Shown: positions 18,789 to 48,059 of the stretch, piece by piece
How positions within the stretch are numbered: position 1 is the stretch's first letter
How the letters are laid out: every line of letters begins with the position of its first letter
DNA from: Stegostoma tigrinum
Taxonomy: Eukaryota
Direction: 5' to 3'
Assembly: GCF_030684315.1 (NCBI RefSeq)
Contig: NC_081396.1
Span: 9,105,628-9,169,627, forward strand
Length of the DNA stretch: 64,000 nucleotides
Translations under genes and position numbers: made by a program
The notes under the pieces: generated by a model
Database searches by the model: none
The model's input: the letters and a program-made list of their open reading frames with translations, nothing else
Told to the model about the DNA's origin: nothing

Positions 18789-19696
18789 CTATTTACATTT
18801 TCTGAACACTAGTGTCAGGGGAAATTTCATCAGTTTCTTTAACTGCTCTCTGAATTTACTCTGGGTCCCTGCATAAATAAATGGGTTGATGCAAGAATTC
18901 AAAAGCTGAAGCATGTACCCGCCTTCGTCAACAATAAAGTTTGATTCATTGTAATTTGAACCTGAGAAATAAGTGGCATTTGCAATTTGAACGCGGAGAA
19001 AAGTCAGGAGAACCAATAAATAGCACAGAAGAAAACTGCCTGAGATAGCAAAGAGTAAGACAATGGACTTCCTCCTTTTTTCCATCTCTGGGTCATTCCG
19101 ATTCTCTCCATTGCTCCTGGTCTGGAGTCTCCTGCGGGCTCTACTGGCCAATACAATATGCCTGACAGTGAGGACATTGAGCAGCAAAATCAGAATGAAT
19201 GGAAGACAAGGGGTTAAAATTACTATTAACCAGTCAAATGCAATCCAGAGAGGTGACGTATAATATATTGATTTGAGGCTGCAATACCAGGGTACGTCGT
19301 TAATGATAAAGGAAGGCTCATATGCAAAGTACAAAGGGATGTTTCTAATGCAGTTCAGAGTACAGGTAGTTGCTATAACCACGACCGCTACTTTCTCAGT
19401 GCAATATTTCATTTTCAGCTTCTGGCAACAAATGGCAATAAATCGATCAAGAGTGAAAGCAACAGTTATCCAGACAGAAGAATCTCTGACTCCATGAATT
19501 AATGTGAGATTGGCACTATAGGTTGGGGTGATGAACAGGAATGTCATTGGAAAATAAATACCCATAATCCGATTTAATATCACAGCTGTGATAATGACCA
19601 GGATATCTGTCACGGCCATGGATACCAGATAATACACGATGCATTTGGAAAGACCACACGTTTCCCGTGACAGGATAACAATCACCGAAAGGTTAG
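18789..19696 (-). CDS. Class A GPCR, GPR139/GPR142-like, gene 1, exon 2 (joins exon 1 at 21353-21422; 325 aa total)
   Basis: Acceptor ttttctgttag|CT AAC, then an open frame to TAG. 7TM motifs MAVTD (TM2), FTLDRFIAICC (TM3), PWYC (ECL2), TPCLPF (TM5), INPFIY (TM7) and helix-8 KFREQL. Confidence 0.93.
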
Positions 19697-21029
19697 CTAA
19701 CAGAAAACAATGTAAGAGTTACTATGTGATATCAACAAATGTGTACATAACCAAAGAAACACCAAATAGACTTTTGATAATGCTCAATTTTCTTAAAGTA
19801 TGTACAAAGAGAGAAAACAGTCTGCATTTTCTGTAACAGTGGCAATAGGAGTGCATTCTTAGTTTTATGGTAATCATTGGTCTTCTTTCTTTATGATTCA
19901 GTTGTGGAAAATTCACTCTCTTCTGCTCCTGGGAAAATCATATAGTGGAACCGAAGCATAAGTCTTCTGAAACTTTTGTAATTTGAAGAATCAGTAATAT
20001 TATATCGACCAATGAAATGGCCAAAAAGAAGCAGATCTTATAGAATTTGAAGAAATCCTCAGAGATTCACATTGAAACAAATATTCAATAAGAAACAGCT
20101 GAAGATGAAAAGAAAACTCACCTCTAAACGGAGAGAGTCCTCAGTTTATCCTTGAAACGGAATTGAAGTTAAGGCAACAACATTTTCATGACAGACAATG
20201 AAACAACAGAACAGATGAATTCCAGTTATAGTTCCCCAAGTAATGCGCTCTCTTTTGAATCCTGCTACAAGTCTTCAGATTTGACTGAGCTTTGCACCAC
20301 CCAGGATGTTGCATTTGTGTGAAACCGGTAAATGAAAGATTTGTGGAATGAAAGTAGAAATTAAAATTGAGCTGAGCTATGAAGAAACTGCTGTTAATGT
20401 TCTATCAGAAGCAACAAGCAGCACATCATGGTAAAGTTGAGGAACCTCAGTAGCTGAGAAGATTAAAAATTGATACATTTGCATTGTTAACAGTTTGACA
20501 GTTGTAATTGAAATTTAATTGACAGTTATGCTGCTCAAAACAATGGAAGTGCAATTAATTAGTAATCCCAGTGATATAACTCACATGCAGCACTGGTAGG
20601 AAGAACTCGCCAGAACAATATTTTTGAATTCTGATGTTAACAATAAAGCAGAAAGGACAGGGGAAAATGATACTGCTCAAGGAAATACACTAACAACAAC
20701 ATCAGGAAGCTATGCAATTAAAATCGAGCAAATAAGAAATTCATTGAAAAAATTTTGTTGGCAAAATAGACCATCATGCCCTTAAAAGGGAGGTGAGACA
20801 TTCTAACCCAAAATCAGGCAAAGTTGCAGGAAAGATAACATTTTGGTTCGACATCCGGCTTTAGAAATCTGAAACGTCAGCTCGCCTGCTCCTCTGATAC
20901 TTCCTTACCTGTTGTGTTCGTTCAACTCCATACTGTGCTGTCTCTGAAAACAGCATCTACAGTTCTCGCTATCTTGCGCATCAAATTGTTACAATCTTAC
21001 TGCTCCATAGGGCTGCTCTATTTTTAGAG

Positions 21030-21170
21030 AGAGACGACGTGTGATGGTTATCCTGAAGGCCTCTATGTCTCAGGAAACTTAAGATGTCGAGAAGGAAAAT
21101 CCTTCATAGTAACCTCTGCAGGAGTTGGAGCGAAAACATGCTGTCCAGCTAACTGAGCTAACTGGATCCC
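21030..21170 (-). mobile_element. tRNA-derived SINE fragment in the intron of GPCR gene 1
   Basis: The reverse complement begins ggatccagttagctcagttagctggacagc (tRNA A-box-like). Confidence 0.55.
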
Positions 21171-21352
21171 TCGAAATTGCATACCTCAAATAGACAATAC
21201 CATTGAATGTGATTATGTTGTTGGAGTGAATACAAAAAAGCCTACGAATTCATTGGGACTATGATATTGATAACTAAGGGGTAAACTCAAACGGGTAAAT
21301 TAAAGAAGCTGTTAAAAATCATCCCACTTAATAACTAACGGCTGTCCTTTAC

Positions 21353-21422
21353 CTGGAACCCCAGCAATTGCTAGGATAGGATAATAAATAGCAAACACGA
21401 GTCCTTTTGGTAACCCATGCAT
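21353..21422 (-). CDS. GPR139-like gene 1, exon 1 (MHGLPKGLVFAIYYPILAIAGVP, phase-1 intron)
   Basis: 70 nt from ATG to CCAG|gtaaag. It splices in frame to give VP-A-NL (TM1 Asn) and matches exon 1 of gene 2 in length and motif. Confidence 0.92.
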
Positions 21423-22859
21423 TTCTGTCTCAAGCTGCGTTTACTTTTGGCCCTGCAATGAATGACAGCCACATTTGTACCTGATGGCAGGCTCCAGGGA
21501 CACAATTAAATGCCTTGAACTTTTTGCAATGATTACTGTAATTGGAGCAATCAGATTCGAGGTATTTCTGCCTGGCTTGTCTTCAATTTTGATGTAATTA
21601 AAAAAAATCATGTAAAAAAAGACATTTCTCCAAAATGAATTAATTTCAAGATGTGGATTCCTTGGTCAAAACAAAAGTGAAGTACAAAACAGGCTGTTGC
21701 AAATATGCACAAGGGTGGATTGAATGAAGTACCTTGTATATGAATGAAACATTTATCACCTTAGATATTCTGTTATATTGGAATATGCAGCCTATTTCCT
21801 GTCCAGATCATTATTCAGTCTGTTTGTTCACTGATTAAGTTCCAGTCTCCCTGAAATTGTGTAATCAATTGAAAGCAACAATCTGCCCACACATTATGGG
21901 CATGTCCATCAAATTTCACATTTCATTCACAGGGCTTGATTGTTTTTACAATTACTTTTGAGAGCTGACTGGACGATGTGCGAACTGTTATACTGTATTC
22001 TGACATGTCAAACACATCTTGATGAGATGCAGTTCAACATGCACATTCCAAATCAGCAGATATATTAGCACTGATATTGGCCGCTTTCTGGCTATGCATT
22101 TAGAGTGGGTAAAGCCTGTTCAGTGTGATTACATTTATCATAAATTGGTCCTGTGCCTACTTTTGCATTCTGTTCACACATATCTCTGACCATATCACTG
22201 TGGTTGTCTTTAGTACCGAGTTGTGTGGGGCAGATTAGGATTAAATCTATTCACTGAACAAACAGGATCTGGTCCAGTTTCACAAGGTTAAATTAAGTGC
22301 TATGCTCATTCAGTACTGTCCGAGAACAAAAGTACAGATCCACATCCTTCTCAGTTTGTGTTTCGTGAGGGCAGTAATGTACAGTTGGGCTCTATTCATC
22401 TCAACATGAAGAGAATGGTTCCAACAAGTTATTGTCTTTGTGAAATTGTCCAAGTGAATTTGATTAATAGTACAGTGAACATTTACATTCAATGTTGACC
22501 TTTCCCATTCTGTTCTGCGTAGAGTTGTATTCAATGTGTATGGGATTCAAGGTGCACAGGACCACTTGAGGATACCCATTCATTGTGTCAGGCCCAGGTC
22601 AGCAGCGTGACCTTCAACTTTTGACCAAGCCTGTAGGAGCTGGTGAGTGCATTGAGTTCCTAATGATGAGACAGAATGTGATAAAATGATAAGGGTTTCG
22701 TTTCCTGCGTTTGCAAAACGTCCTCATAAAGCAAGCAGTTGTTTCAGGTGAGTTGAAATGTACCTGGAAAAGACCTGAGGAGAGAGCGCCTAGGAAGCAC
22801 TGAAAAAAGTAATATTTTATGCAGAATCCCACTGCCTGCTCCAGTATTCAAGTAGATCA

Positions 22860-24300
22860 TGGCTGATCAGATAGCTGAAATTTCATTTTTATACCTTTCT
22901 CCTGCAACCCCTGGTTCTCTTACTGATTGAAGGAAAATCCGTCTCAGCCTTAAATACACTGAGTGGCACAACTCTGCAGTTCTCTGTCGTGATGAACTCC
23001 GCAAATTCACAACCCTTTGATAGAAGTTCCTCCTTGTTTCTATCTTAAATGTGCAACTTCTTACTGTGAAATTATGCTCTCTAGCCCGAGGAGAAACAAC
23101 ATCCCAGCATCTACCCTGTCAAGACATTTAAGTCAATAAGGACACTTCCTATTCTTCTCAACGCCAACCCAACTTACTTGATCTCTCCACATGTGAAAAT
23201 CTTTCCATCATTTCGATCAGTGAATGTTCCATAGACTGCCGACAATGACATTAAAGCTTGTCTTAGATAAGTGGCTAAATCTATTCACATTATTCTTGGC
23301 GAGGTCTAAGTAGTACCTTGTATATTTTTCTCAAGACTTATCTACTTCTGTACTCCATTCTCTGAGATGGACTAATGTTCCAGTTGCCTTCCTTATTATC
23401 TGCTGAACATGCATGTGCAGTCTTCTTTTTTGTGATTTATGCAGTAGGATGCCCGAATGCCTCTGTGATGCAGCATCCTGCAGTCTGTTAAAATAATAAC
23501 GTCTGCATACAACTGCAAAACCTAATTTTTCACATTAATTTCCGTTTACCAAATTTTTGACACAAATGTAACCTGTTTATATTTATCTGCAGATGTTTTG
23601 ACTCCTTGTCATCACTTACCTTCCCATTGCTTTCTGTAACCACACTCATTTGCATTATTTATATGATAAATACACATTGTAAATTATTCTACTTGCAGCT
23701 CTCATCACTGTAATGCTCCACTAGTTGTAGAGTGCCATCCCGAAAATTTTCCTCATGTCCCAACTCTGTCTTCCATTAACTCGCCAATTCTCTATCCATG
23801 CAAACATACAATCTACCCACCATGGGCTCTTATTAAGTAGCCATATGTGCATAACGTTATTGAACACATTTTAAGAAACTTTACATTTTTTGGTTCCCAT
23901 TTATCTTCCTGCTTCTTACCTCCTCAGAGAATTGTGATGAATCTGTCAGCATCGTTTCCATTTTAATGACACCATGTTGGATCAACTTGGTTAGATTATG
24001 TATTTCTAAATATTCTGAAATTACTTCGGTTCCAATAGATTCTAGCATTTTTCTAATGATATATTTTAAGTTAATTGACTCGTTTCTTGTCTCCTTCGTG
24101 TTGTCTAGTCCTTTGGGACTTTTCCAGAATTTAAGGAATCCTGGAATGTTACTACATTTGCCAACTGTCTCTTTCACTGCTTCGTTTAATATCCTTGGAC
24201 ACAACCCGTCATGTCCAGACAACTTGTAAACATTTAGGTCTAGCATGTTCCCTAGTAATTTTTTTTCACTAGTAATAATGATTTTCTTTAATTTCTGCCC
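22860..24300 (-). mobile_element. Old, highly decayed CR1 LINE
   Basis: ORF 23881-24312 contains SGHDGLCPRIL...IQHG (a KSPGPDG/SQHGF remnant); a 3'-end-like sequence lies near 22860. Confidence 0.7.
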
Positions 24301-24949
24301 CACTATTGCCACTTGATAATTTTATACTTTATATTTTATTCACATGAACTGACCAACCCCTCACTTACTCATGCTCCCATCTGGGCGTCTTTTAGAGATT
24401 TCTTTGGAGGCTTACTTCAAGGTTTTCACAAGGCATTTTCATTCTCACCACTCCTTCATTGTATCATTGTATTAATGCTTCTGCATTTCTGTTACCAAAT
24501 GGTCTCACATAAAAGCACGATTAGAAAAAAGTATCCAAATGCTCAATAATCATCTCTGCTCCATTGACCTTAAATCTAAATCATAGAAGTCAAGCATTAA
24601 TTCATTGTGGCATTTATGTCAGTACAAGCAACCAGACATATGAATAGGAGTAGGCCATTCAGCGCTACGAGTCTGCTCCACCATTCAATAAGATCATGAC
24701 GATCTGTGGTTAAATTCCATATGCCTGCCCTCAGCCAAATCGCATAATACTTCTGCTTTTAAATAAAATCTTTATCTCAGATTCAAATTTAACAATTGAA
24801 TTAGCATCAAGAACTATTTGATGAACAGAGCTCCAAACCCCTACACCTGGTGCTTTCTAACATCTCTCGTGAATGGCCTGGCCATAATTCTCAGATTCTG
24901 TCCTCTATCATCGTGTGAAAGGTGGAGAAAGATCGAAGGTGCCAAAGGC

Positions 24950-26900
24950 CTATTGCTGTGCCTTGGCTAAACTTACACTTCAGTAGTAATGCTGTAGGCA
25001 TTTGTAAGATTTATTTTATCAATTCACAGGATGTGGACGTCGACACCTCAGTTGGGATTTGTTGCCCATTTTAAAGTTATTGCTGTACCTCTGGAGCCAC
25101 AGATAGAACAGACTAGATGATGACAGTAGTTTACCTCCAGGAAGGACATTGCAAACTGGATTTCAACCCCTTTCTAACAAATGACAAAGGCTTCATGGTT
25201 ATCCTAGACTCATAATTCCAGATTTGTTCCTAATTTGAAATCCCAGTAACTGCCATGTTGGGGCTCTGTAATTTTCGTTTCATCTGTCTGCTGGCGTATG
25301 GAGGCATCCAAGGGGACAAGGATATGGACTACTAACTCAGTGTGGTATGCATATATTAGTTCAAATCAAATTCTTGTTACTATTGCGCTAAGTGTTTAAC
25401 TCAATGTTCTTGCAATACGGTTGCCGAGCTTTTGTAAGAGTTAGGAGATTCTTGTCGACGTATCACACTGGAGCTCGTGTACTTAGGTGAAAAACAGGAC
25501 AAGAATTGGAAACCATCACCTGAACTTTATTGCAATCTTGATTCAACTACAATAATGAAAAGGGACAAGAATTTCCATCGTTCCCTCCCATCCTTCAAGA
25601 ATTACATTCAGAGGATTTGAATCCAACACAAGAACTACCAGGAACGAGGAGGCAGAATAGGTTTATAATATGGAATATATTTATTTGCCTTTTGTTCAGA
25701 GACAAGCTGAGTGAGAAATAGAATCCCTGCAGGATAGAGGCAACAGTGTGGAAGTGGGCCATTCAGCACATCGATCCACACTGACATTGCGAGAAACATC
25801 CCAACATAGCTTATCTCAGAACTCTGCGTATCCTGTAGCCAATTTACTATCATGCATTTCATTGGACAGTGGGAGGAAGCCAGAGTACCAGGACAAAACG
25901 CATGCATTCATGGGGAGAAGATGTAAACTCCATGTAGACAGTCCCTTGGGATTTGGATCGAATCTGTATTACTGGTGCACCGAGGCAGTAGTTCTAAAAA
26001 CCATACCCCTTATCCCAGGTTTCCTTCAAATTTCTGAGAAACCAGTGTAATCAGAGATTTTGCTGATAATCGCATCTAGGACTGAACTGTATTCATTCTG
26101 ATATTCGGAATTGATTGTAAACTACAGATGCGGCAGGATTTATTATGTTGACAATCGATTTTTTGCATTTTATAACCCACCTGAAATTGGAATATCTTTC
26201 ATTAGATTGCGCTCAAGCTTTTGTAATACGTTAATAAACAACGATTCATTAATACTTTCTGCATTTTAACTCCTATCCTCAGTGCCCACAATGGGATCTG
26301 CACTACATTGCGAATTGCAAACAAAGGTTGGATAATCACTTTGTGGAACAATATAAAATTCGCCTGTAAACCGGACCAAGAGCTTCTGGTCGTTTATCAC
26401 TTTAATTTTCTGCCCCATTTCCACTCTGGCCTTGGCCTCCAGCAATGCCCAAAGGAAACTGAACGAGAGCTCAAGGAGCAGCCTTCAATTTAGCACTTTC
26501 CAAGTTTCCAGACTCAACATGGAATTCAGCAGTTTCTGTACCACAGGATAGTTGTTAGCACCTAGAACACATCATTGAAACCAAGCTAGAACTGATGCCT
26601 TATTAGATTGTGCCTACTCACCCTTCATTTCCAACTCAATGGAAATAGTTCTCATCTCACTTCCCTATCGGTCACCAATCAATGTTGAAATCTTTCATCA
26701 AACAACCGCCTAATTTTTGCATTCCTGGACATATTTCCCTGAGTGCATGGTGATGTATTTCAGCATCAGGGAAAGAGAGGCAATATTTGATTATTGGAAC
26801 AATTCTGAAAAGTATGCAGTGATCAAGCGATTTCTGTTTCATGTGCATATACCTTTTAAGGTAGTGGAATATATTTGTCATTAGTGAAGCATTTTTAGCT
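24950..26900. repeat. Local duplicated block, copy B (includes V-SINE ~25740-26000, minus)
   Basis: Colinear with 5480-7460, e.g. gagcttctggtcgttt, aaggaaactgaa and gcagccttcaatt. Confidence 0.85.
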
Positions 26901-26914
26901 TCATAAATATAGAG

Positions 26915-27288
26915 GTTGTTCACTTGCTCACTGAGCTGGCTTGTTTTTGTTCAGCTGTTTCTTCACAATGCGAGCTAACATCATCAGTGAGGACTCAAGT
27001 GAAGTGATGTTGTTCTACTCCGCTTGAAATTTATACTGTTTGCTCTGTTATGGTGAGGAGTGTCATTTCCGGTTTTGTTCTGTGTGGGTTTATATACTGG
27101 GTCCAATTCTATATCTTTGTTGATTGCATTACAGGGGAGAGCCATGCCTCTAGGAATTCCCGTGTGTCTATGTTTGGCTTGGGATACGACGGGTACAGTA
27201 TCCCAGTTGAACAGATGGCCTTCATTGTCTGAGTGCAACTTATGTGAGATTTCGAAAATATTATTCTGTTACCATGTTCAGTTTGGGG
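26915..27288 (-). mobile_element. Penelope-like retroelement 3' fragment (GIY-YIG endonuclease C-terminus + terminal repeat)
   Basis: HSDNEGHLFNWD..VSQAKHRH / REFLEAW / NAINKDIELDPVYKP across a frameshift, then the hammerhead-like cactgatgatgtta...gaaac. Confidence 0.8.
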
Positions 27289-27940
27289 AGTCATAGACAG
27301 AGAGTCATACAGCCCAAACAGTCCATGCTGAGCATAATCGCAAACTAAACGAGTTCCTCCTGCCTGCTCGTGGCCCACATCTCTCCAAACTATTTCTATT
27401 CATGTATCTATCCAAATGTCTTTTAAACGTTGTAATTGTACCAGCATCTACGATTTCCTCAGGAAGTTCATTCCATACGTGAACAAATTTCTGTGTAAAA
27501 AAAATGCCTTTCATGCCTTTTTAAATTCTCTATCCTCTCACCTTAAGAATGGTCCCCTAGCCTTGAAATCCCCTATTTGGGGGAAAAGACATTACCATTA
27601 ATTCTGTTGATACCTCTCCTTGTTTTATATACTTCTATCAGGTCACCTCTCAACCTCAATTCGCTCCAGTGAAAAAAAACAGTCCCAGCCTATCCAGCCT
27701 TTCTTTATTACTTAAACCTTCTATATGTGGTAACATCCTGGTAAATCTCTTCTGAACTCTCTCTCGCTTGATAATATCGTTCCTATAACTGGGTGACTCG
27801 AATTGGACACAGTATTCTAGAAGAAGCCTTACTAATGCCCTGTACAACCTGAAGATGACTTCCCAACTCCTACACTCAAAGGACTGAGCAATAAAGGCAG
27901 GTACGACCAAGCGCCCTTTTAATCATCCTGTTTACATATT
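27289..27940 (-). mobile_element. CR1 3' fragment
   Basis: LYRALVRLLLEYCVQF..ERVQKRFTRML and FFTQKFVHVWNELP..FKRHLDRYM. Confidence 0.9.
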
Positions 27941-28075
27941 CCAGAACAGAGAGAACTGGAGGTTCATACACATAATTCATTGAAATTTGCGTCGCAGGTA
28001 GCCAATGTTGTTGAGAAGGCATTTCACACGTTTGCCTTTATTGCTCAAACCTTTTATTTTGGGAGTTGGGGATGT

Positions 28076-29340: not shown

Positions 29341-29639
29341 TCATAGAATTGATTGCAGGTCCCTATCCTTTGAGTTATGTGCAGCCCAAATGATGGATTA
29401 AAAGCCCATTAGAATTTCCTGACATAGATCTAAGCTCTGTTCATTGTAATGCTCTTCATGACAGTGCCTCCAGAGATTATTATTGGTGATGGGGAATAAG
29501 TAATGTGCCGTTTTTATTATTTTGGTTGAGTGGTCAGAATTCTGGAAATTTGCTTTTCAAAATGGAGCAGAAACTGAGGCAGTTTAGAGATATTTCATTT
29601 CCTTTCAGTGTGTTTCTCTTCCACACACTGTCAGTTTTG

Positions 29640-30400
29640 GTGATTTGATTTGATTTCTCAATGTCACATGCACATAAGTAAGTGGGAAGCTTTGTTTTGC
29701 ATGCAGTACAGGTTGATCATAGTACACGAGGATCACAGGGTGATTGAAAAGAGCTCGGAATACAAAGTTAATGCTGATAATTAGGTGCACACAAAGCAGG
29801 GTCATCATTTCTGAAGAAGGGGCAAGACCTGAAACATCAGCTTTCGTGCTCCTCTGATGCTGCTTGGCCCACTGTATTGAACCAGCTCTATGCTTTGTTA
29901 TGTCAGGGTCATCATGAGATTTTAAATTTGAGAGCTCCATTCATTAGTCTAATAATAGTAGGGAAGAAGCTGTTCTTGAATCTGTTGGTACCTGTGTTTA
30001 AGCTCTTCATATTCTAGCTGACAGAAAAGGTCGGAAGAGATTATAGCTGGGTGGGAACGGCTTTTCATGATGTTGACATCCTTTCAATGCCATCATGAAG
30101 CGTAGGTGGAATCAGTGGATGGAAGATTGGCTTGTGTGATGATCTGGCCTGTGTCCATAACTATTCTGGGCAGAGCAGTTGCTGTGTGAAGCCATAATGC
30201 ATCCAGATAGAAAGCTTTTTACGGTGCACCTGTAAACGTTGGCAAGAGTCTTTACGGGCGTGCAGAATTTCTTTAGCCTCCTGAGGAAGAAGGGGTGTTG
30301 TGATGCCTTCTTGACCATCACACCTATGTTGGTGGTCCAGGACAGATCTGATCAGGACAGATGCTCTGGGACCATCTCCACCTCAGCTGCATTAATGTAG
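29640..30400 (-). mobile_element. Rex1/Babar-type LINE 3' fragment
   Basis: VKKASQHPFFLRRLKKF..TLANVYRCTVKSFLSGCI..NCSAQ, with an (aatca)n-like tail. Confidence 0.8.
29809..29903 (+). mobile_element. 95-bp Penelope-derived insertion with a 12-bp target-site duplication and hammerhead-like core
   Basis: cagggtcatcat at 29797-29808 and 29904-29915; core CTGAAGA-AGG..CCT-GAAA-CATC; the paralog at ~57583 is empty. Confidence 0.8.
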
Positions 30401-31134
30401 ATGGGGGCTTCTGTGCTCATGTGTTAATACATTTCAGTTTCACATTCTTGCATTTCAGTCATTTCCAATTGGCCTGAGGCAACAGCCATTTCGAGTAAAA
30501 CGCAATTTTCCATTTACAAAGACACACCAGTCTGATTTCAATTCATAATGAATTCCTGTTCTTTGTGACTATTATTGGAGCAGAAACGGAAACTCATCCT
30601 CTAGCTGGAAATTACACTGGGACATTGTGGTGAAAGCCTTTTGCTCTAAACACGAGACCATCAAATAAATTAAAATTTACTGAATGAAGCTACTTTGGAA
30701 CTGTGGACAAACCTACTCTTGCTGCAAGCTGTCACTTACTGTCCCCTTTGTTCTCTTCACAGTGTGAGTCCTGGCTTTAGAAAAGTCATAAAATGCAAGG
30801 AATATTCAGCAGAAATGCATGGAGAGTAAAATAGAGTCAACGTGTTAGCTCGATGATACGTGTCATCCACCTGAGATACAACAGGTGATGAAGGATATTT
30901 GATTGGGCAAATAATCAGAATTGATTCAGTTTTGATCCAGGGAGAAGAAATAATTTGTGGGATTTTTGGAGGAAGTGCTTAGGAAAAAAAACAATGGGCC
31001 TAAAATTAGTTCCTGTAAAGCTGTCTGAATGTAGGCTGTGAAGTAAAATTAGCAAACACAAAAACTGAGAGGCTTATTTGAGCTGTCAGTTTGAAGATTG
31101 ACAGAATCAACCCAGGCCAACAAAGTGAGGATCC

Positions 31135-31280
31135 AGGGTTCTGAGAAATGGTCACTGGACCCGAAACATTAACTCTGATTTTTTTCTTCACAGATGCTGC
31201 CAGACCTGCTGAGCTTTTCCAACAACTTCTATTTTTGTTCCTGATTTACAACATCCACGGTCCTTTCGGTTTTTTATTCA
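31135..31280 (+). mobile_element. Penelope-derived element arm with degraded hammerhead-like core
   Basis: ctgagaaatggtcactggacccgaaacattaactctg...cagatgctgccagacctgctgagcttttcc; paralog at ~58850-58985. Confidence 0.7.
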
Positions 31281-33149
31281 GGATACAGAGTTGATTTTGT
31301 TTTATAAAATTTAAGAAAATATTTGTGGGGAGTATTCCAGGTCCATGAGATTATATTTTGGGTAGGTTTCGTGTACTGGAACTCCCTGTCGAGAGCTGAC
31401 CATCATCTTGTTTTGGAATCGTCTACAAATCGAATGGTACCCATCATAACTGCAAAAAGGATGAGACCATCAGTAATATTAAAAACAAAGTCAGCAGATT
31501 CGAAAGAAGGAAATTCCAAAGAGGAAAACTGGGATATAAAAAGATTTGAGAAGCGAATAATAGTACACTGGGATTGAGTATCTGAAAAGGATATTGTTGG
31601 AGAGTAAGTCGAATTGTTGTTTTACTGCTTTTATTACCATCTTTATTTAATGTCTTTTATAAAATTTATGTTGGTGCCTTTTGTCTCTTGAAGTCCGACA
31701 AACTTGAACAATTTCTTTCCAGCAATTCAACCTCGACTACTCTTGTTATTTAGAACTTGTATCTGACCTCCTCTGAAACGTTTCTTCCTTCAGTAAAACA
31801 ATCCCAGAATCTTCAAAATCACTTTGAAACCTAAATCACTTGTCACTCCGATCATTTTGGTAAACCGTTTCTACACACGACCTATTGCTTTCACATCTGT
31901 CTGAAGCGGTGTTAAAGGAAATTTAATCATCCAAGAAATCTTACATATCTTTTACGGTCCAAAAAAAAGCATTCATATTTAAAGTTCAGGATCTGTTGTT
32001 CTGTCCTGACACCTTCATGTAATTTTATACACATGGTTTCAAATGGTTTCACTGTGCCGTCAGTGTTATTGGGAGTTCAGCTCCCCGCTGCACCAGTCTG
32101 CTGCATTCAAAATATTCCTTTCTTCATATTCGTCTTTCTAATCCTAGTTTCACAACAATGCTATTCCAGGCAAGCAAGGATTGAACAGATAGAGACACAT
32201 GAACAGACAAGATGCCAGATTCCACCAGGAGTGATAAAGAAGGATGCTTGGCAACCCAGTGAGAGGCTGAGCTGGCGATGTTTATTATTTATGGACTGTT
32301 GGTTAAAACGTTTAACGAATGAACATGAGATGCTCACATGTTAGCCCAGCCTTCCTTTCCATGACCAGGTTTGTTTAGGCCAGTGACACAGAACAGGCTC
32401 TGGGCATATCTCAGGAAAGGATATATAAATGACTGTTTGAAATGTTTCGTTCACATAACAAAGTTTACCACAAGCCTTGAGGTACTGAACATAGCATATT
32501 CCACAAGACGTCTTTATATGACGGGGTAAACGTGTGCAGTATATGGAGGATATGACTTCAATTTTGACCAAGACCAGTTTTGATTGAAATGGGTCACTGA
32601 CTGTTGGAGCATCAGCTGTAATACAAGATAACAATCTTGAAAAATAAGGACATTAGTTTGATGGATCAATTTCCACGGGAATGTCACAAGGATCCTGCAC
32701 TCATTAAATTCTGATATTGCATGGAGAGCAATTGTTCTATTACTTTCAATATAGATTGTTCGGAATTCAACCATTTTTTGATGAAAATGATTGGAGGTCT
32801 CCTGACCCTTGGAATACACGGCAGGCGACAAAGAGATCTCAAGGTGTGCGTACAAAGAAATAAAAACATAGGTGTCACAAGAAACAAGATGATGCACGAA
32901 GTTTAATTCTCAAGGTATTGGCGTGAAAAACTGCGATTTCATTACTCTTACACTGGACAGTAGTAGAATACATTGCTACTGCTTGGCTTTCCATATTGAC
33001 ACTCATGCTTTACTTTTGCAATCACATTTATATCTTGCAGAAAGCTGTTTGTAACTGTCAAACCCTTTTAACCATCTTGCATTAGCTAAAAAAATCAAAT
33101 GCCAGAGTGGGTATATTTTTAACTCTGTCATGGGCTGCAACGACAGCAA

Positions 33150-33360
33150 CCAAAATAGAATTTGTTGGAAAAGCTCAGCAGGTCTGGCAGCATCTGTGTA
33201 GAGATATTGAAGTTAACGTTTTGGTTCGAGTGACCCTTCCTCAGAACTCATTTTCATCGACTTTATGCTCTGAGGAAGAGTCACTCGACCCAACAAATTA
33301 ACTCTGATTTCCCTCCACCTAATGCTGTCAAATCTTCAGCAATTCCTTTTATTTTTTGCT
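33150..33360. mobile_element. Penelope-derived ~200-bp palindromic element
   Basis: Inverted arms gagtgacccttcctcaga...tctgaggaagagtcactc; paralog at ~60885-61090. Confidence 0.75.
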
Positions 33361-34039
33361 TCAATATTTGGGAGATACGTCGAGTTGTGGAGAGACTGGA
33401 AGTGATAGTGTTGATATCAGATAGCCTGACAGGTATGAGAGCAGGGTCCTCCTTGTCATAAACAGCTTCGCAATCCATTTTGGATGAAATGGCCTGATTC
33501 TGCCGTTACGTCCGATATTATTCTAGATAATGTGCCAGATGACCCCGAATCCGAAGCACATTAGGGAGGAGAACTGACCTTTTGTTTGCAAGATAATTTT
33601 CTAAATTTCCTTCGGAAACATCTCCACTTCTTCTGGTTTATTATTTCGTTCACACTGTTGTTTTGGAGATGTGGGTGTATGCCCAATGAAGCAAAGAGGA
33701 TTTCTGTTGTCCGGTACAATGAGCCCAATGAAGTAACCCAGATACTGCCCACACGCACACGTTACATATCTGTATTTTGGCTTTCACCACTTGGTAACAG
33801 AGAATTTGGACTTCGTTTCTCACAGAATAGAGATTAAAGTAAATACCCGCATATTTTCCGAGAGTGGCACTCAATCTGCTCTATTTTTGATTCATTCATT
33901 TGAGCTACAACGTCTGTAGTCCTGCTACGCTTGCTATCTTTACACCAAATTTCTGCTCACCCAAAATGCAACCAAATACACAGAATTGGATACATACTTC
34001 TCGGTTCCTGACCCAAACTGTTGATAAATTTCATAACAG

Positions 34040-34300
34040 ACTATGTCCACTCGAGTTTCAAGAACAGCTTCTTCCCTGCAGTTATTAAGCTGATGAGTGG
34101 ACGCTTGAACTTCAATTAAGGCTAACATTGTCTAGTGCACGTTCTGAGTGGTGTAACCAAAATGCCTTACTTTATCCGAGTTTTCTTCATCCTATGATCT
34201 AAACGTCATTGTTTCCTACCATCTGTCTGTTCTGCTCACAAACAAAGCTTTTCACATTGCTTAGGGACACGTGACAATAAAACAAATCACGTCAAATCAG
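34040..34300 (+). mobile_element. Rex1/Babar 3' end
   Basis: FKNSFFPAVIKLM plus a 3' UTR; paralog at ~61785-62030. Confidence 0.65.
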
Positions 34301-34384
34301 GATAGCACAGTATAAGGGAATTTAACGCGTTTGTTGCGCTATCATTAGTGCATTTTAAACAGTTATGTAATCATAGTCGTACAG

Positions 34385-35370
34385 TCATAGTCGCAGACTC
34401 ATCCAAAAGTGAAACAGGCCCTTTCTGGTCATGCAGACTATAACCCCAAACTGAATTAGTCCCACCTGCCCTCGCTTTGTCCGTATCCTTCCAAACATTT
34501 CTTACCCTTACACTTCGCTAAATGTCTTTTTGACCGTTGTTAGTGCACTGCATCCACCACTTCTGAAGTTCATTCCAAGCGCAAACCACTCTCTGTGTTA
34601 ACAAAAAGCCCCTCGTGTCTTTTCTAAATCTTTCTCCTCTCACTGTAAAGACAAACCTCCTTGCCTTGAATTACCCACCCGAGGGAACAGACTCTGCCAT
34701 TCACCTTATATATATCCCTAGTGATATCATAAACCTTTGAAAGTTGACCCCCTCAACCTATGCTCCAGTAAAAAAAAGGGTCCGAGCCTATACAGCCTCT
34801 CCTTAAAACACCAAACGTCCCTTCTCGAGAACATCCTGGCAAATCTCTTCAGAACCTATCCAGCTTAACAAAATCCTCCCTATAACAGAGAGACCAGAAA
34901 TGGACACAGTACTCCAGAAGAGGCCTTACGAGCGACCTCTAAAAACTGAACATGATGTCCCAATTCTTATAACTAAACGTCTGAGCGAGGAAGGCAAACA
35001 TGCTAAATGCCTTCTCAGCCACACTACCTAAATCTGAAGCAAAGTTTAAAAGATTGCATATTTGAGCCCCCGGGACTCTATATTCTGTGTCCAAAGCCCT
35101 ACTTTTGATTGTGATGTGGAGATACTGGTTTTGAACTGGTTTGGAAAAATTCAGAAGTCACACGACAACAGGTTATAGACGAACAGATTTATTTAATGTC
35201 ACCCAATGAAAGAGCAGAGGCTTGAAAACTGGTGATTTCAAAGAAACCTGTTGGACTCTCATCTGGCGTCGCACGATTTATGGCAACTTTTAATTATGTT
35301 GGCCTTGCCTCTCTTTTATCAAAATGCAATACGGCTCATTGATCCAAATTAAACTCTATCTGCCACTCTT
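34385..35370 (-). mobile_element. CR1 3' fragment, with a Penelope-derived palindrome inserted at ~35115-35290
   Basis: Reverse LLEYCV.F / RFARM motifs; paralog at 62105-63110. Confidence 0.8.
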
Positions 35371-36139
35371 CAGCCCATTTCATGAAGTTGACGGGCCTGG
35401 TATAAACTAATATCCAACAGAAATGTATTTCCATTTTGTGCGTTCCGCCCTTCAGAAAGCAGACTGACGAATTATGGTAAAGTTACTAACTATCATATCA
35501 GGAAATCAGCTGAACAGGAACTGCTTGTCGACTTCTTGGCGTAAGGGAAATCTGTAACAGAGTTTTGATCAGGAAAAATCGTGTTACCGCTGCTTACATC
35601 AATTTCATCACTTGAAAGAAGAGAGGAAACATCAACGTTGAAAAGCTACTAAGTTCAGAAGCTACTGATAATGGATTAACAGGCAAAGCTGAACTCCTTC
35701 TCAGGACCAAGCAATACCTGGAAACGAACAATATCTCCGTTAAAATCAATGATTAATTACAGGATTTAATGCCTTCTCTCTATTAGACTTAAAACATTTA
35801 CAGACGATTATCTAGAAAACATCATCGAGTCAGCTTAGAAATAATAATTTTCCATATGCCTAGAACAAGATAAGAACCGCTTGCATCCATGGATGTTACA
35901 ATTCATTGAAATTTATTTAAGATTCTTTATCAATCATACACCTTAACCTTTCATTACTACAGCATTTTGGACAGTGTGGGATTGGATTCTGTCTTTGCTC
36001 ATCAACGTGATCATTGCCTGAGGTGCTCGTCCAGTCTGCACGTTAACAAATTGATTCATACAAAACTGAAGAGAGACAGAACCAATCATGATCTAGTGAT
36101 GTGTTTACAATGAGGTGATTTTCCTTTCTAAACATGTGC

Positions 36140-40600: not shown

Positions 40601-41193
40601 GGTCCCCTGACTTATGCAATGGTGGGTATCAGTTGACCTTTCCATCTTACACAAGGTATTGGTTGTGAATCTTTGCACCAGTGGCATATGCTGAGGTGAG
40701 CCATATTGACGTTTCCCTCCTTATTGGAGAGACAACTGCGTGCAATTTGTCCTGATTTCATTATCGTTTGGATTCATCTTTTGTAGATTGTGTAAATAAA
40801 AAAGAGTAAGACTTGTCTTTACATGGCAAATTTCACGATTTCAGGATTTCACAATGCGGGACCACATTTCGCATTAAAGCTGTGTTTGGAGGGAGTACTC
40901 AATTAAATGTAGTTCCAGAGGCTTTGCTGCACTTCTTGAAATACAGCACGAATCTTAAACGTGCACTAGAGGCAATAAATGAGGTCCAGTTTCACACTTC
41001 GTTCAAATAATCTTTCAGCACTTCACCGAAAAGCCATCTGAAGTTATCGGCACAAATCTCAGCGTTTGAATCGAAAACGTGTTAATTCTGTGCGAAGAGT
41101 GGCCCCTCTGATCTACAGTCGTAAGGGATTGACAGGATTACCAGGCCTGGATGAGGCTGAGAATTCATGAAGGGCACCTCACTCAGAACTGAT

Positions 41194-41232
41194 AGTTTTT
41201 GTACCAGTGCCAAGGATACATGTATCATGATG
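41194..41232 (-). other. V(D)J recombination signal sequence, 23-bp spacer, with defective heptamer
   Basis: Minus strand: CATCATG (heptamer, consensus CACAGTG) + 23 nt + ACAAAAACT (nonamer, consensus ACAAAAACC), directly after the YYCAAVK codons. Confidence 0.9.
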
Positions 41233-41540
41233 CTTCACAGCCGCACAGTAATACATGGCCAAGTCAGACACTTGGGTGTCCACGATATTTCAAGGAACGT
41301 TTGTGTTCTTTCTGTCCTGTACGGCTGAAAACCGCTTCGCAAAACTCATTGCGGTGTGTTCATTACCAGACGTGTGTCTGCCCAGCATGTACTGAAGGCC
41401 TTTTCCCGAGTACTGCACATACCAGAACAGATCAGCGGCTATGTATGTCATGGGGTACTTACAGGACAGCGCCACAGTCTCTCCCTCACTCACTGATACT
41501 ACTGGTGGCGTTTGGGAAAGTTCGTTCTGTTGGCAGGGCT
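41233..41540 (-). pseudogene. T-cell receptor alpha/delta-type variable (V) exon, pseudogene
   Basis: Acceptor tcttttccag|AG, then PCQQNELSQTPPVVSVSEGETVALSCKY...LFWYVQYSGKGLQYML...FAKRFSAVQDRKNTNVP*NIVDTQVSDLAMYYCAAVK. Both V-set Cys and the Trp are present; in-frame TGA at 41290-41292; followed by a 23-RSS. Confidence 0.9.
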
Positions 41541-41818
41541 CTGGAAAAGAAATAGTTACAAACGTAACTTTTACAGGTACCTTTTTATTTCAGTTTCGAT
41601 GAAGTACCTAATTGCCATCTCTTCCAGCATTCAACTACACAGTGAAGGTCTTTGCCCTCGTTTTGCTCATCCTGGACTATGTTGTTAAGCCGAGAGAGCA
41701 TGTCAAGTGGGATTATTCCTTCCTGCAAATCTCCCATTGTGACAGCAACAGGCCTGCTACTTTGAATAGTAACAGACACTGACACCTGATCAAAGCCCCA
41801 GGAAATTTGTATCCATAA

Positions 41819-41867
41819 CAGATATAAATATAAAAGAAAGAAGATGAACAGTGAAAATAACAAGCAT
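41819..41867 (-). pseudogene. Leader (signal peptide) exon of the V segment, MLVIFTVHLLSFIFIS+G, with mutated splice donor
   Basis: 49-nt hydrophobic ORF whose phase matches the V exon; the donor reads G|ttatgg instead of G|gt. Confidence 0.7.
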
Positions 41868-42279
41868 GCTAACAATACAATCTGGCAAAATACCTATTCG
41901 GCAGAAGCATTCTGAGGAATAAAAACACTTTCACAGTCACTGGTTTGGTCCAGCACACACTCAGTTGTCGAGAAGAAACGTTCATATTGTTTTCTTAATC
42001 AATTCTCTTGTCTTCTGCACAGGTATGTGCTGGTGTTCTGTTAGCTTTCACAAGGATATAAACACGCACTTCATAGACGATATGGACATCACACCATTTA
42101 TTTGGCAACCCAGCAGCTGATAAGCACCATGGAGGAAGTGTTGGGAAGAACAAACAACGTGAACAAATCAGAAGAAACTTCATCATTCCATCTGCACCCG
42201 AGCCTCAATGGTGACTTTCTCTCAGTGCCATCATTTTGATAAAGTTAAGTAAAGACTGTTTTCCTTATTTTTGTTATCA

Positions 42280-42920
42280 TTAGCCATTTAGCAGACATTG
42301 GCGACAATTTCAATGGAAGCATTTATTGACCATCCCTAACTGCCCTACAAAAGGTGGGAAGCCGAATTCTTGATAGACCGTTGTCCTTGACACACACCCA
42401 ATATGGACAACACCATAAAGAACGGGGATCCACTACTCTGACTTCCAGAGAGTGAAGGGACGGAATCTGCCACCTTTATCAGTCTCCTTGGTGAAGGCGA
42501 TGGTTCTGGAAAGTTCTCCGAGGGATACTTCGTAAGTTTCCACAATCTATTTTACCGTTGGTAAACTCTGCCATCATTGAATAGGGTGGGGGAATGTTTG
42601 CGGATCAGAGGCCAATCAAGCGGCTTGCTTTCACTTCGATTGTGTCGAGCTTCATGAGTTCTGATGCAACTAAGCACGTCCAGGCAAGTGAAGAGTATTT
42701 AATCACATTTCTCACTGATGCACTGATGACGGTATAGAGTCTTTGGGCAGACTGGTTTGATGTGCTGCCTGTAGCACTCGTCGCTGCTGACACATTTTGT
42801 CTGTGTTACAATATTCATAGAGCTTGCCCAATTCAGGTTCTGGATGATGTCACCCACCCACGGGACTTTGATTGTGGGAGACGGAGTGTTGGCAATGCCA
42901 TTGACTGCCAAGAAAAGAGC
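42280..42920 (-). mobile_element. L2/CR1-group LINE 3' fragment, decayed
   Basis: VRNVIKYSSLAW...KLDTIEVKASRLIG RT C-terminal remnant. Confidence 0.65.
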
Positions 42921-43069
42921 GCAAGGTTCTCTTAATTTTCAGAAAGTCATTTACAATCCTTCTGGTGGTATTAAATTTGCCTCCCATTTTTCAGACCAAC
43001 ATTGTTATTTTCCCATTCTCACTGTCTTTACATGTCAGATGCTTCATAGCCTGATGAGTCAGGAGAGAA

Positions 43070-44040
43070 AGACATGGAAGCCAAGGATTCCAGTGGGGAT
43101 GGTGATGCTCTGGAAAATGTTAACATTTATAAAGAGCAGGTTTTATATATTTTAGATGGTATAAAGGTGCACAAATCCACATGGCGTGGAGAGATGTATC
43201 CGCAGGCTTCTTTGGGAAGCAAGGGAGGAGATTTCTGTGCCCCTAGCGGAGATATTTGCTAATTCCTTTATACAAGAAGTGAGGCAGGGATAGGCTAGGT
43301 AACTACAGACAGGTAATTCTGACAGCAATGGCAGGGATCACGTTGGTAAAAAGTTATGAGGGACAAAATTAATCAACACATGAAAAAGCGGGGACTGATC
43401 AGGGATAGTCGGCATGGATTTGTTAGTAGGCATCCTGTCTGACTGAATTAATCGAGTTTATATTTGACAGGTAGTAGTGCCATTGATGTGCCTACATGGA
43501 CAATGTCCTAGGTAGAGATTTAGTCTAAAAGGTAAGGATTCAAGGCGAGTTGGCAAATTGGTTCCAAAATCACCTTCCAAGCAGGAGGCAAAGGATAATG
43601 GGAGAGAGATGCCTTTGACCAGTGGGGTACAACATGAAACAGTGTTGGCTGAAACTGTTGTTCATTGTATGCATAAATGACTTGTTGTGAATGTAGAAGG
43701 CATAACGAGCAAGCTTGCAGATGACAAGAAAACTGGTATTGTTGTTAATACTGAGGAGGATGGTCTCAGGCTATAGTCTGATACTGAGCAGCTGATAAAT
43801 TGAACATCGGCGAATGACACACAGGAAAAAAAATCCTGCCGAGAGTATTTGGGCCTTAGAATGCATTTATAATAGTATGATGCATGGGAATTCAGCGACT
43901 TAGAAAGGAAATTGGATCGATCACTGAAGAAGTGCAATTTGCAAGAATGTCTTGAGAGATCTGAAGCATTGTTCTATAAAAGAGCCGATGCAAACATAAT
44001 ACTTTGAATACCCCCCTTTGTGTTCTGCAATCTGTCATTC
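43070..44040 (+). mobile_element. Old CR1 ORF2 remnant
   Basis: ALENVNIYKEQVL..IKVHKS, a gatagtcggcatggattt (DSQHGF) remnant and a gcttgcagatgac (FADD) remnant. Confidence 0.75.
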
Positions 44041-46383
44041 TATAAAACGAGCAGTGCTAAAATTCGATTATTTAATTGCATTGGGGGCATATCTAAACCT
44101 CAATGTGCAGTCATTCAATAATTGTTTTCACCAGCATGGTACCAAGCCATGGTAATCATATTGAGGTTGTCAGCAATGTCAATATCCCATCAGAGTTTTG
44201 ATCATGGAACACTGAGCTCCCAATCACGAATTCAACATCATGTGACAAATGCATTATTTCCTGAGTTTTTACAGAAGGGACGTCAGAATATTGCAGGGCT
44301 CAGCTAGAAATTTGGGGACCTAAGTAGATAATAGCATATTCATAAGTTTTATTGCATGTGTATTTCAAGTTGTGCATTCACTTCATCATTGTGTTCAAAC
44401 AATATTGCAAAGCCTGTAATATTCACACTCTCCAATTTCATTGTGTCAGACTCAAATGGTTTTCATTCCCATCATTGGCTGACTGAAAGCATTTTTTTTC
44501 GAAACGTTATTTTGCTTAAATCACTACACCAAGATTTACAAGTATTTTTCTGATGTAGTGTCACTTCCTTCACTTGGTTTTTCTCTGAATAGTTTTTACA
44601 ATTTTTTTGTTTCTACAAAACACCTTGAGAAACCAATGTTTTTCTTGCTGTCTCAGCAACATAGATTTCCAAAATGACTTTTCAGATTGAATTACCAGTT
44701 TACCACGAGCAATGATTGCTGATATTGCATTTCAAACTCCACCCAGACATACTGATTAAAATAAATCCACAGGTTATCCTCTTTTGCAGTAGCAATGATA
44801 ATGCTACTTCAATTTAGAAATGGATATTTGCAGATAAATCGATCGATGTTAAAATTACTGTTCACTGAGTTGCAAGATCTTTCAACCTGCAGTTATTAAT
44901 GTGCTCATTTTCATGAATAGCCGATATCTAACTATGCTTGGGAATTCTTTCCTCTCGCCTTTGAGGTGCTATTAATCAGATTGACACCAGTGGAAAGCAC
45001 AGCTTGAATGTAAAATTGATAACATCAGTCCAGAAGAGAAACGTGTAGCTTATTACACCACGTTTAAAAATATGAATTTTTTTGTTAAGTAAAAGTGAAG
45101 ATGCAGAGTACGTTTTACAATGACAGAAGTCGGAGGAATGTTGGCATTCAGAGGCACCTGGCAGGGTCAATTACTCAAATCATTGGAAATGTATTTTCAG
45201 AAACAACACAAACACAAACACCTACCAGTCGGTAGATAGAATTAACTAAGAACAAGCTTGCACTTTGTTATTGTCACTTGGGTGATTCTTAATCAAGAGA
45301 AAATCAAAATGATGTTCATTCTATGTATCAATGCAACTGTTTATTGATCAAATTTTATTGCCCACTGCCCAACACTCTCTGGATCATTTCTTCTGCTTGC
45401 ATTGCGTCATTATTTATACATCACAAATAAATATCATTTCCATATCCCGTGCACCAATCTTTGAACTAAATTGTGTACACAATTATTTCTGCAGAGACCC
45501 CATATAGTCAGGAAATAAAATCACATCGCGACGCTCTCTATAAAACAATTCAGAACAATTTCCACCTCCTCGCAATTTCACCACATCTTTATCCAACTTT
45601 TAAATTACTTCAATCTTGCCCCTCACGTTAACAACCTATTTTATTAGTCGATGCATCCTCCCATGCAGACCTCGGATAAAGGCAATGTCAATAGTTTGGT
45701 ATTCTCAATGGCGGAATATGTAGAAATAAAATTACATTATTTCCAAGCTAATCCAGATCAGAGACATTATGAGGTATCACAACACAAAGCAATCCTAAGA
45801 CATTGGGATCTTCAACACCAGAAAAGATAAATAGGATTAAATCACTCACATAAATAATTTTTCAGCTTGAATGCATAAAAGAAAAGAGAAAGCTTCTGAT
45901 GCTCAGGCACAAGTTAAGGTCCAAGCCCTTTTCTATTGTGTGGAGGACCATGATTGAAAATTCATGAAGAATCATGCCTGAGGAAACAGTAATGTATTAC
46001 AGGAACAGTCAGGGCAAATTCCAGTAAATTGGCGTATTTCTGTCGACAGGAGAGCCACCAGCTGGTATATTTGGTAGTTGGTCTATTGTGTAGGGAGGTC
46101 ATCTGTCAATAAGTGGTTTACTCAACGGCACAACCAGATTACAAGTTAGTAGAATGCAGTATGTTTCTTTCTGGTACAGGCAGGCCTTTTTTACATAAAG
46201 ACATTGTGACATGAGCAATCCCATTGCAACAGGCAGACTTTCAATAACCAGACATTTATAGTCATGCCAATGAAGTTATGATCATTTAAAAGTTCACAAA
46301 AGAGATTAAATTTGCAGCCATCATGCATAGAATGTTTTCAATGTATAACAGGGCATTTCAGAAAACAGAATTGAACTTTGTTT

Positions 46384-47288
46384 TCAATTTTTGCACAATT
46401 TAGCAATTAGACTCAATGGGCATATCACCATAATATTTAATTGCTCTCTGAACTTACGTTGTGTTACTGCATAAATAAATGAGTTTGTGCAACTGCTTAA
46501 AAGCTGAAGCATATTTCCACTTTCCTTAAAAATAAATTTGGGGTCATCAAAGCCATCTATGATGTAATTCTTTGCAAATCGATGCCAAAGAAACTCCACG
46601 ACATATGTCATCCAGAACACGATGAAAGCACCAGATATTGTAAATAGTAAAATGATAGACTTTCTGCGGCTCTCCATCTCTTGATCAATCGTATTTTCTC
46701 CATTGCTTTGGGTACAGAGTCTTTTCCGGGCTCTACTTGCTATCAGAATGTGTCTAACAGTCACCGCATTAAACAAAACAATCAGAAAGAATGGGAGACA
46801 AGGAGTTACAATATGATCAAACCAATCAAATGCCGTCCATAGAGGTGAAGTATAACGTATGTTCTTCTGCCTACAATACCATGGTGTGTTGTCAATTACA
46901 TAAATTGATTCATGCATAAAATACCAGGGGATATTCATTAAAAAAGCTAGCGCACAAACCATTCCTATGATGACAGTTGCTGTTTTTTCAGTGCAATATT
47001 TAGTTTTCAGTTTCAAACAACAAATGGCCACAAGTCGATCAAATGTGAATGTCACAGTTAACCATACAGAACTGTTCCTGCATGCATATATTAGTGCAAT
47101 ACTGAAACTGCACACTGGGGTAATGAACATGAAATTACCGGGAAAGTAAATAGCTGGAATTCGATTTAATATCACTGCAGTGATAATGACCAGGAGATCC
47201 GTCACGGCCATAAACACCAGATACCTCGTCATGCATCTGGAGAGTCCGCACCTTCCTCTGGACAGGATCACAATCGCCATTAAATTAA
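46384..47288 (-). CDS. Class A GPCR, GPR139/GPR142-like, gene 2, exon 2 (joins exon 1 at 55628-55697; 324 aa total)
   Basis: Acceptor gtctttcag|TT AAT, then an open frame to TGA. Motifs MAVTD, TPVC (Cys3.25), FTFDRLVAICC, PWYC, TPCLPF, TNSFIY and KFREQL. Confidence 0.93.
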
Positions 47289-47399
47289 CTGAAAGACAAT
47301 GAAATCATGTTGTACAATTTGTTTGTCACCAAAAAATGCTCATTACGCCTGGTGTACATTTATAAATCATTTTTATTTTGAGTCTTTGTTAGAGAATGC

Positions 47400-47850: not shown

Positions 47851-48059
47851 ATTGAATAGCAGAACAAGCTGTTGGAGATCGAGGATATCCTTTGTAACTG
47901 TGATCAAATGTGAAATCTTTCCTACTTGAAACGATAGAAACAGATACCCCATTATAAGCAGCTGTCATACTTCACAGGCATCTGGAGAATGCATCACGAC
48001 AACTGAGAGGGAAAGAAGCACAATCAAAACGAATTCAAATTTACAAGTTGAATAAATGA

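Follow-up and report, generated by a model that had tools for sequence, protein, structure and literature searches.

Two old class A receptor paralogs of Stegostoma tigrinum and their elasmobranch-expanded family, a predicted chemical-sensing repertoire

The 64,000-nucleotide stretch of Stegostoma tigrinum DNA analysed here (contig NC_081396.1, positions 9,105,628 to 9,169,627; hereafter the window) carries two receptor genes, gene A and gene B, on the minus strand. We propose that A and B are old paralogs in a family of class A G-protein-coupled receptors (GPCRs) that has expanded in elasmobranchs and is predicted to serve as a chemical-sensing repertoire, a reading to which we give an even chance. 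Six-frame translation and Pfam identified the two long minus-strand frames of the window as class A GPCRs (7tm_1 at 67 and 78 bits). Scanning the six frames of the 64 kb with a family hidden Markov model (HMM) revealed no third receptor gene or pseudogene remnant. The two genes have the following parts, in which TM denotes a transmembrane helix and LINE a long interspersed element:

21353..21422, minus strand: gene A exon 1, 70 nt, from the ATG to a GT donor, phase 1
18789..19696, minus strand: gene A exon 2, from the C-terminal half of TM1 to the stop
55628..55697, minus strand: gene B exon 1, 70 nt, with a GT donor
47289..55627, minus strand: gene B intron, 8,339 nt, with decayed LINE fragments inside
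46384..47288, minus strand: gene B exon 2

Both introns are of the GT-AG type, lie in phase 1 and are placed immediately before N1.50 of TM1; that of gene A is 1,656 nt long. The spliced proteins have 325 (A) and 324 (B) amino acids and are identical at 187 of 326 aligned positions (57.4%). Splicing and translation thus bore out the initial annotation, which had described two intact paralogs of the same architecture (70-nt exon 1, phase-1 intron in TM1) with about 57% identity. Its range ended at 47288, and exon 1 of gene B falls beyond that point. The very short N-termini noted there agree with the structural model of a close relative, P0003, in which helix 1 is predicted to begin at residue 8. 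Between A and B the synonymous divergence (dS) is 1.28 and the nonsynonymous divergence (dN) 0.31; because dN/dS is about 0.25, the two genes are under constraint. Both spliced frames are intact. Comparison of the introns and the 3′ flanks of A and B found no conserved sequence.

The class A assignment is based on the 7tm_1 match, seven helices, D2.50, a DRY-like motif and Y7.53, as found by Pfam, in the P0003 model and in conserved alignment columns. The P0003 model (pLDDT, the predicted local distance difference test, 86.5) has seven TM helices and helix 8. In the predicted fold, seven helices follow next to no N-terminus, and a hairpin of the second extracellular loop (ECL2) lies above the pocket, held by a disulfide between C3.25 and ECL2 that gene A, with Y3.25, lacks. 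On the cytoplasmic side the family alignment has near-invariant cysteines in intracellular loops (ICL) 1 and 2 (gene B residues 37, 113-114 and 122), and near the junction of ICL3 with TM6 one D and one R are invariant; these may be lipidation or transducer-contact sites.

The size of the family was assessed by searching with gene B. Among 3,078 candidates 2,088 clusters (90% identity) were found at E<=1e-20; species and contig counts were taken from the best 120 of these and are lower bounds. Seventeen elasmobranch species, sharks and rays, account for 118 of the 120 matches. Heterodontus (horn shark) contributes at least 23, 19 of them on one 59.5-Mb contig, and Heptranchias at least 17, whereas Rhinoraja and Hemitrygon have at least 13 each, in both cases 13 of 13 on one contig. 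The best match to gene B is a whale shark protein with 90% identity. An exhaustive search of the 50%-identity representatives gave 121 clusters at E<=1e-30, and of 20 divergent representatives that were looked up 16 were from elasmobranchs and one from lamprey, with several different contigs per species. No chimaera sequence occurred among the 118 named top matches or the 30 representatives looked up, which does not show that chimaeras lack the family.

DNA sequencing data gave a similar picture. In four runs 238, 283, 259 and 262 contigs aligned to exon 2 of gene B at >=80%, mostly with less than 95% identity; the four runs derive from one sample of one study, possibly the one that the window came from, and are not independent, and the counts include alleles and pseudogenes. 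Between 31 and 43 contigs per run bear another letter at position 47015. One animal holds many related copies of B-like genes, alleles and pseudogenes included. At position 47245 the summed contig depth was about 376 against about 5 for exact-match contigs in run X1, a ratio that is not a copy number but gives a hint that there are tens of copies. Positions 47003-47076, where the depth was very high, were disregarded as a probable repeat artefact. No RNA data set was listed as carrying exon 2 of gene B, which speaks neither for nor against expression. We estimate that the family has at least two dozen pocket-diversified members per genome, and probably a great many more.

Lineage expansion with birth-and-death behaviour is strongly supported by these observations. 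The initial annotation had named a low copy number across the genome as the outcome that would speak against such an expansion, and the 2,088 clusters, the 17 species and the clustering point to the reverse. Its birth-and-death array is upheld by the multicopy clustering in relatives and by the DNA contigs of one sample; the window itself holds two genes and no dense array.

Trees were built from 133 proteins (290-345 amino acids, chosen representatives and outgroups) and from a second set of 36. Gene A pairs with Heptranchias P0114 (72%), gene B with Heterodontus P0003/P0018. A and B thus belong to different subfamilies, each having members in other shark orders, and these pairings indicate that both subfamilies predate the split of the major shark groups. 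Besides the common subfamilies there are species-specific blooms, for example a stingray/manta clade, and rays have blooms of their own. The shark family may not be monophyletic, catshark P0190 being placed outside the shark clade in the 36-protein tree. Family members also bear the automatic names GPR15-like, TRH receptor-like, vasopressin V2-like and capa receptor-like. A recognisable TM1 start is missing from 39 of the 120 database models, and many representatives are fragments. The mixed names and the truncated models would hide the family from name-based surveys.

Human GPR139 and GPR142 are orphan receptors activated by Trp and Phe, GPR139 also by peptides. The best relative with a solved structure is human GPR139, by phmmer (56 bits, E 2.5e-14), by profile (102.7 bits) and by Foldseek (rank 1 at 22% identity, with other peptide receptors close behind). 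This explains the database label 'GPR139'. Other chordate orphans score higher: salamander P0225 (161 bits), coelacanth P0230 (149 bits), silverside P0242 (123 bits) and amphioxus P0252 (108 bits), a comparison made with the same program on different databases and with human GPR139 only. The nearest non-shark relatives have 33-35% identity, and P0225, P0230, anchovy P0259 and P0252 themselves score just 53-101 bits against human GPR139. In the 36-protein tree the shark family, the amphibian/sturgeon sequences and the coelacanth/teleost sequences form one clade (support 99.9/100), within which the sister grouping of amphibian and shark sequences is weakly supported (0.68 in the 133-protein tree, 53/74 in the 36-protein tree). 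True GPR139 and GPR142 were outside the trees, and their position was judged from scores and residues. By these measures the shark family is a distant branch separate from GPR139/142, nearest to the amphibian/sturgeon and coelacanth/teleost orphans.

The amphibian/sturgeon orphan (P0225 and P0278-P0297, database name 'probable GPR139') appears to be single-copy: a word-limited search returned 20 amphibian clusters, one for each named species, and a sturgeon, and turned up no amniote or teleost match. Its pocket is near-invariant and basic (K6.51, K6.55, R7.35), and N replaces D2.50. The 'DPE..RR' motif at the ICL3/TM6 junction and C3.25 are common to the amphibian clade and the shark family. 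The part of Rinne et al. 2019 available to us (PMC6504862) describes three fish/coelacanth orphan sets beside GPR139/142, two of them named GPR210A/B. The coelacanth/teleost orphans found here are probably among the GPR210 subtypes. Neither 'cartilaginous' nor 'elephant shark' is used in the available text of that article. According to the accessible part of Thiel et al. 2021 (PMC8557429), GPR139/142 are sister to the protostome MIP, FMRFamide, proctolin and myosuppressin receptors, and their ancestor probably bound aromatic peptides.

The agonist pocket of GPR139, as given in the available portion of PMC8807744, is formed by I2.57, F2.62, E3.32, F3.33, I3.36, H5x43, W6.48, R6.51, M6.54, I6.55, H6.58, N7x38 and L7x42. 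Mapped by eye from alignments, with residue numbers assigned manually, four of these 13 residues are kept in B and one in A. In gene B, E3.32, F3.33, I3.36, H5x43 and R6.51 become I, Y, R, D and Y, while W6.48, N7.39 and L7.43 are retained. At the key position 6.51, coelacanth, two teleosts and amphioxus have R and the amphibian and sturgeon sequences K, whereas the shark family has Y (58%) or N (11%). The majority residues of the shark family, weighted over 116 sequences, are R3.36 (56%), D3.37 (76%), D5.42 (59%) and R5.43 (57%). Because the GPR139 pocket is lost, Trp/Phe sensing cannot be transferred from the name, and the residues found instead suggest a polar or zwitterionic ligand.

Variation in the pocket was compared with that of the signalling face. 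At the 13 pocket sites 25 Heterodontus paralogs were 0.65 identical, with 22 different residue strings, against 0.96 and three strings for 20 amphibian orthologs, whereas at 22 positions of the G-protein face the values were 0.88 and 0.89. When bins matched for overall TM identity were compared, pocket identity was lower in shark than in amphibian sequences throughout (0.69 vs 0.87, 0.81 vs 0.94 and 0.89 vs 0.97). Pocket entropy was 2.09 against 1.38 over all TM positions (permutation 0.0004). A variable pocket combined with a conserved G-protein face fits a ligand-diversified sensor repertoire. Two marks of such repertoires were found here: clustered lineage-specific expansion with turnover, and a diversified pocket with a conserved transducer face.

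We infer a chemosensory role for the family. Each receptor would have a ligand of its own, a short peptide or a small polar compound, bound inside the helical bundle beneath the ECL2 hairpin at a charged site (R3.36, D3.37, D5.42, R5.43) that would replace the E3.32/R6.51 site of GPR139. All paralogs would signal through one common G protein and differ in tuning. Coupling would probably be of the Gq/11 or Gi/o type, if GPR139 and the microvillous TRPC2/Go neurons in the nose of sharks are taken as analogues. The receptors are probably expressed in few cells of a sensory epithelium; microvillous neurons of the olfactory organ are the likeliest site, ahead of taste, solitary chemosensory or gut cells. 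Sharks have 6-13 OR genes and 8-43 V2R genes, as stated in the available part of Syed et al. (PMC10116579), and such small numbers leave room for another repertoire. A more specific form of the proposal, which we put forward tentatively, is that neuropeptide-receptor-like orphans gave rise to a fifth shark/ray olfactory receptor family that rivals or exceeds the V2Rs, is sparsely expressed in olfactory neurons and has a common homeodomain/EBF promoter element.

A candidate for that element lies upstream of both genes:

21475..21508, minus strand: upstream block of gene A, -86 to -52 from the ATG, a homeodomain-like TAATTG adjoining an O/E(EBF)-like site
55769..55802, minus strand: upstream block of gene B, -105 to -71 from the ATG

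The 35-nt block is the best local alignment between the regions upstream of the two ATGs, and none of 1000 shuffles attained its score in 150 nt, as against 3 of 1000 in 200 nt. At its start stands the homeodomain-like TAAT core. As a lead, it resembles the Lhx2/Ebf composite of mouse olfactory enhancers described in the accessible text of PMC5608512. A pattern built from both sites recovered just those two; being circular, it was not used. CAG/GTA in the block was considered as the donor of an upstream exon and rejected, since the intron that it would leave in A, about 56 nt long, is implausibly short.

Several points weigh against the chemosensory proposal. The significance of the block fades in longer regions, where 22 of 1000 shuffles (300 nt) and 87 of 1000 (600 nt) reach its score. 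Gene A fits the O/E pattern with one mismatch and has a spacing 1 nt wider than the mouse probe; gene B has the spacing of the mouse composite yet fails the O/E pattern. The match is post hoc and involves two sequences. Moreover, Lhx2/Ebf composites belong to OR enhancers, and ORs are not expressed in the catshark nose. As to the pocket, the paralog sample is skewed to B-like matches, and the pocket identity of the shark paralogs (0.65) is barely under their overall TM identity (0.72), so that relaxed constraint is as good an explanation of the divergence as positive selection. In GPCRs generally, the extracellular half is the more variable one. Gene A lacks C3.25 and W6.48, both replaced by Y, which are conserved in 92% and 94% of the family, and it forms a long branch. 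It also lacks N7.39, and its NPxxY motif is of the canonical form, unlike the N-T-x-x-Y found in 93% of the family. Its partner, Heptranchias P0114, retains C3.25 and W6.48. Gene A may be decaying, or else re-tuned. Shark olfactory neurons have already been described as microvillous V2R cells (PMC10116579, available part). In the accessible part of PMC11979771, the 50 genes most specific to a catshark library from brain and olfactory epithelium include no GPCR, a weak point because the V2Rs were missed too.

Much of the same evidence has to be weighed under other explanations. That A and B are simple GPR139/GPR142 orthologs or recent co-orthologs sensing Trp/Phe has next to no probability in our estimate: GPR139 does head the PDB matches in sequence and fold, and databases use its name, but 56 bits and 22% identity in the structural alignment stand against 108-161 bits for four orphans, and the pocket counts of 4/13 (B) and 1/13 (A) are low. 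The single copy expected of such an ortholog is at odds with the 2,088 clusters and the many contigs in one sample. For the same reasons of score and pocket the GPR139/142-like label of the initial annotation misleads, and the simple orthology that it had listed as contrary evidence was not found, the genes being multicopy, low-scoring and without the GPR139 pocket. A neuropeptide-receptor ancestry could instead mean that the family consists of receptors for diversified endogenous or reproductive peptides or amines in brain, gut, gonad or sperm. The sister relationship of GPR139/142 to the protostome MIP, proctolin, FMRFamide and myosuppressin receptors (PMC8557429, as far as available) supports this, as do the look-alikes in the Atlas, which are FMRFamide-receptor-like clusters. 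However, dozens of receptors with fast turnover are atypical for endogenous ligands, and the shark paralogs do not have the conserved pocket that would be expected and that the amphibian ortholog does show. We consider this explanation improbable.

Somewhat better placed, although still unlikely, is an immune or barrier-surveillance repertoire similar to the mammalian FPRs and MRGPRs, acting on leukocytes or epithelia and detecting microbial or damage-derived peptides or metabolites. Clustered expansion, a variable pocket and a conserved G-protein face fit it equally well, the modelled fold is as close to peptide and chemokine receptors, and EBF-like sites act in B cells too. The short N-terminus speaks against protein ligands of the chemokine type. 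GPR139, 'receptor 139' and GPR142 were not present in four supplementary files, the part available, of a shark/bony-fish immune-cell atlas (PMC11372145), a weak point because the gene naming there is unclear. Largely neutral birth-and-death in a LINE-rich, duplication-prone region, in which the copies of a single ancestral orphan would be redundant or of weak function, seems quite improbable. It is favoured by the abundance of LINEs and a gene-less duplication at the locus, the conserved residues lost in gene A, the 39 of 120 models without a TM1 start together with the many fragment representatives, and a shark pocket divergence near background. By contrast, both genes have undamaged open reading frames and splice sites and a dN/dS of about 0.25 at a dS of 1.28, subfamilies are retained across shark orders and rays, and the G-protein face is conserved as in single-copy orthologs.

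The proposed chemosensory family can be set beside known systems. With GPR139/GPR142 it has in common the class A fold and the best match to a solved structure; it differs by an identity of about 22%, by being multicopy where those receptors are single-copy, by C3.25 and the ECL2 cysteine, and by the near absence of an N-terminus. The amphibian/sturgeon orphan differs by its near-invariant pocket with K6.51/K6.55 and its one cluster per species. The OR, TAAR, V1R/ORA, V2R/OlfC, FPR and MRGPR repertoires are likewise clustered multigene families with birth-and-death, a compact coding region, a variable pocket and a conserved signalling face. Unlike these, the shark family stems from a neuropeptide-receptor-like clade; Pfam gave 7tm_1 only, with no family-specific match to OR, TAAR, V1R, V2R or T2R. 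Srw/FMRFamide-receptor-like receptors serve as chemoreceptors in nematodes and molluscs. Those invertebrate expansions belong to the same deep clade, judged by Atlas features and by Pfam Srw/Srx matches of the outgroups, whereas the shark expansion is independent; genes A and B have no Srw match in Pfam at E<=0.001.

An account of the elasmobranch expansion was not found in the literature searched, in which subscription journals are little covered. Term searches found no mention of it in the main texts of PMC11979771, PMC8455134, PMC10620051 and PMC7677710, nor in the supplements available, which were 12 of the 24 whale-shark files (PMC8455134) and four of PMC11372145. The proteins are already public under the automatic name 'probable GPR139', and a co-opted, expanded class A repertoire is a known kind of system; this instance is apparently undescribed.

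The window outside A and B is mostly non-coding and carries decayed LINE pieces. Its sole long duplication and the other features are as follows:

29595..36038, strand not assigned: duplication copy 1, non-coding, with LINE relics and without receptor sequence, beginning about 8 kb upstream of gene A
57376..63729, strand not assigned: duplication copy 2, beginning 1.7 kb upstream of gene B exon 1
3635-4771, minus strand: decayed LINE, endonuclease and reverse transcriptase remnants
11411-13900, plus strand: decayed LINE, endonuclease and reverse transcriptase remnants
17252-17785, minus strand: decayed LINE, endonuclease and reverse transcriptase remnants
~48200-51700, minus strand: decayed LINE, endonuclease and reverse transcriptase remnants, within the gene B intron
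2341-2474: assembly gap, 134 N

The two copies of the 6.2-kb duplication are 77% identical, with 1,269 mismatches in 6,231 aligned bases. Their Jukes-Cantor (JC) divergence of 0.24 amounts to roughly a fifth of the dS of 1.28 between A and B, which makes the duplication far more recent than the split of the two genes. Inside either copy, the six-frame scan with the family HMM found no receptor gene or remnant. On both grounds an origin of A and B from this duplication was ruled out, and the initial annotation's picture of genes embedded in tandem segmental duplications does not hold, as the duplication contains neither gene and is far younger than the pair. Copy 1 may be what a B-like paralog left behind after its deletion, or the result of a conversion of upstream DNA; the search for a remnant was empty.

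A large pocket-diversified receptor family has been concealed by the automatic label 'probable GPR139'. For cartilaginous fishes the whale shark genome paper (PMC8455134, available part) notes a 'relative paucity' of GPCRs, and a low olfactory receptor number despite a keen sense of smell has also been noted (PMC10116579, available part). If the fifth olfactory family were true, the view of cartilaginous fishes as animals with a small olfactory repertoire and few GPCRs would be overturned. What else sharks smell, taste or detect with can be addressed with RNA-seq data that already exist. Even if the role should prove immune or endocrine, this would be a large family, of which we found no description, with an apparently single-copy relative in Xenopus that is easily studied; the amphibian/sturgeon orphan is a tractable target for deorphanisation there.

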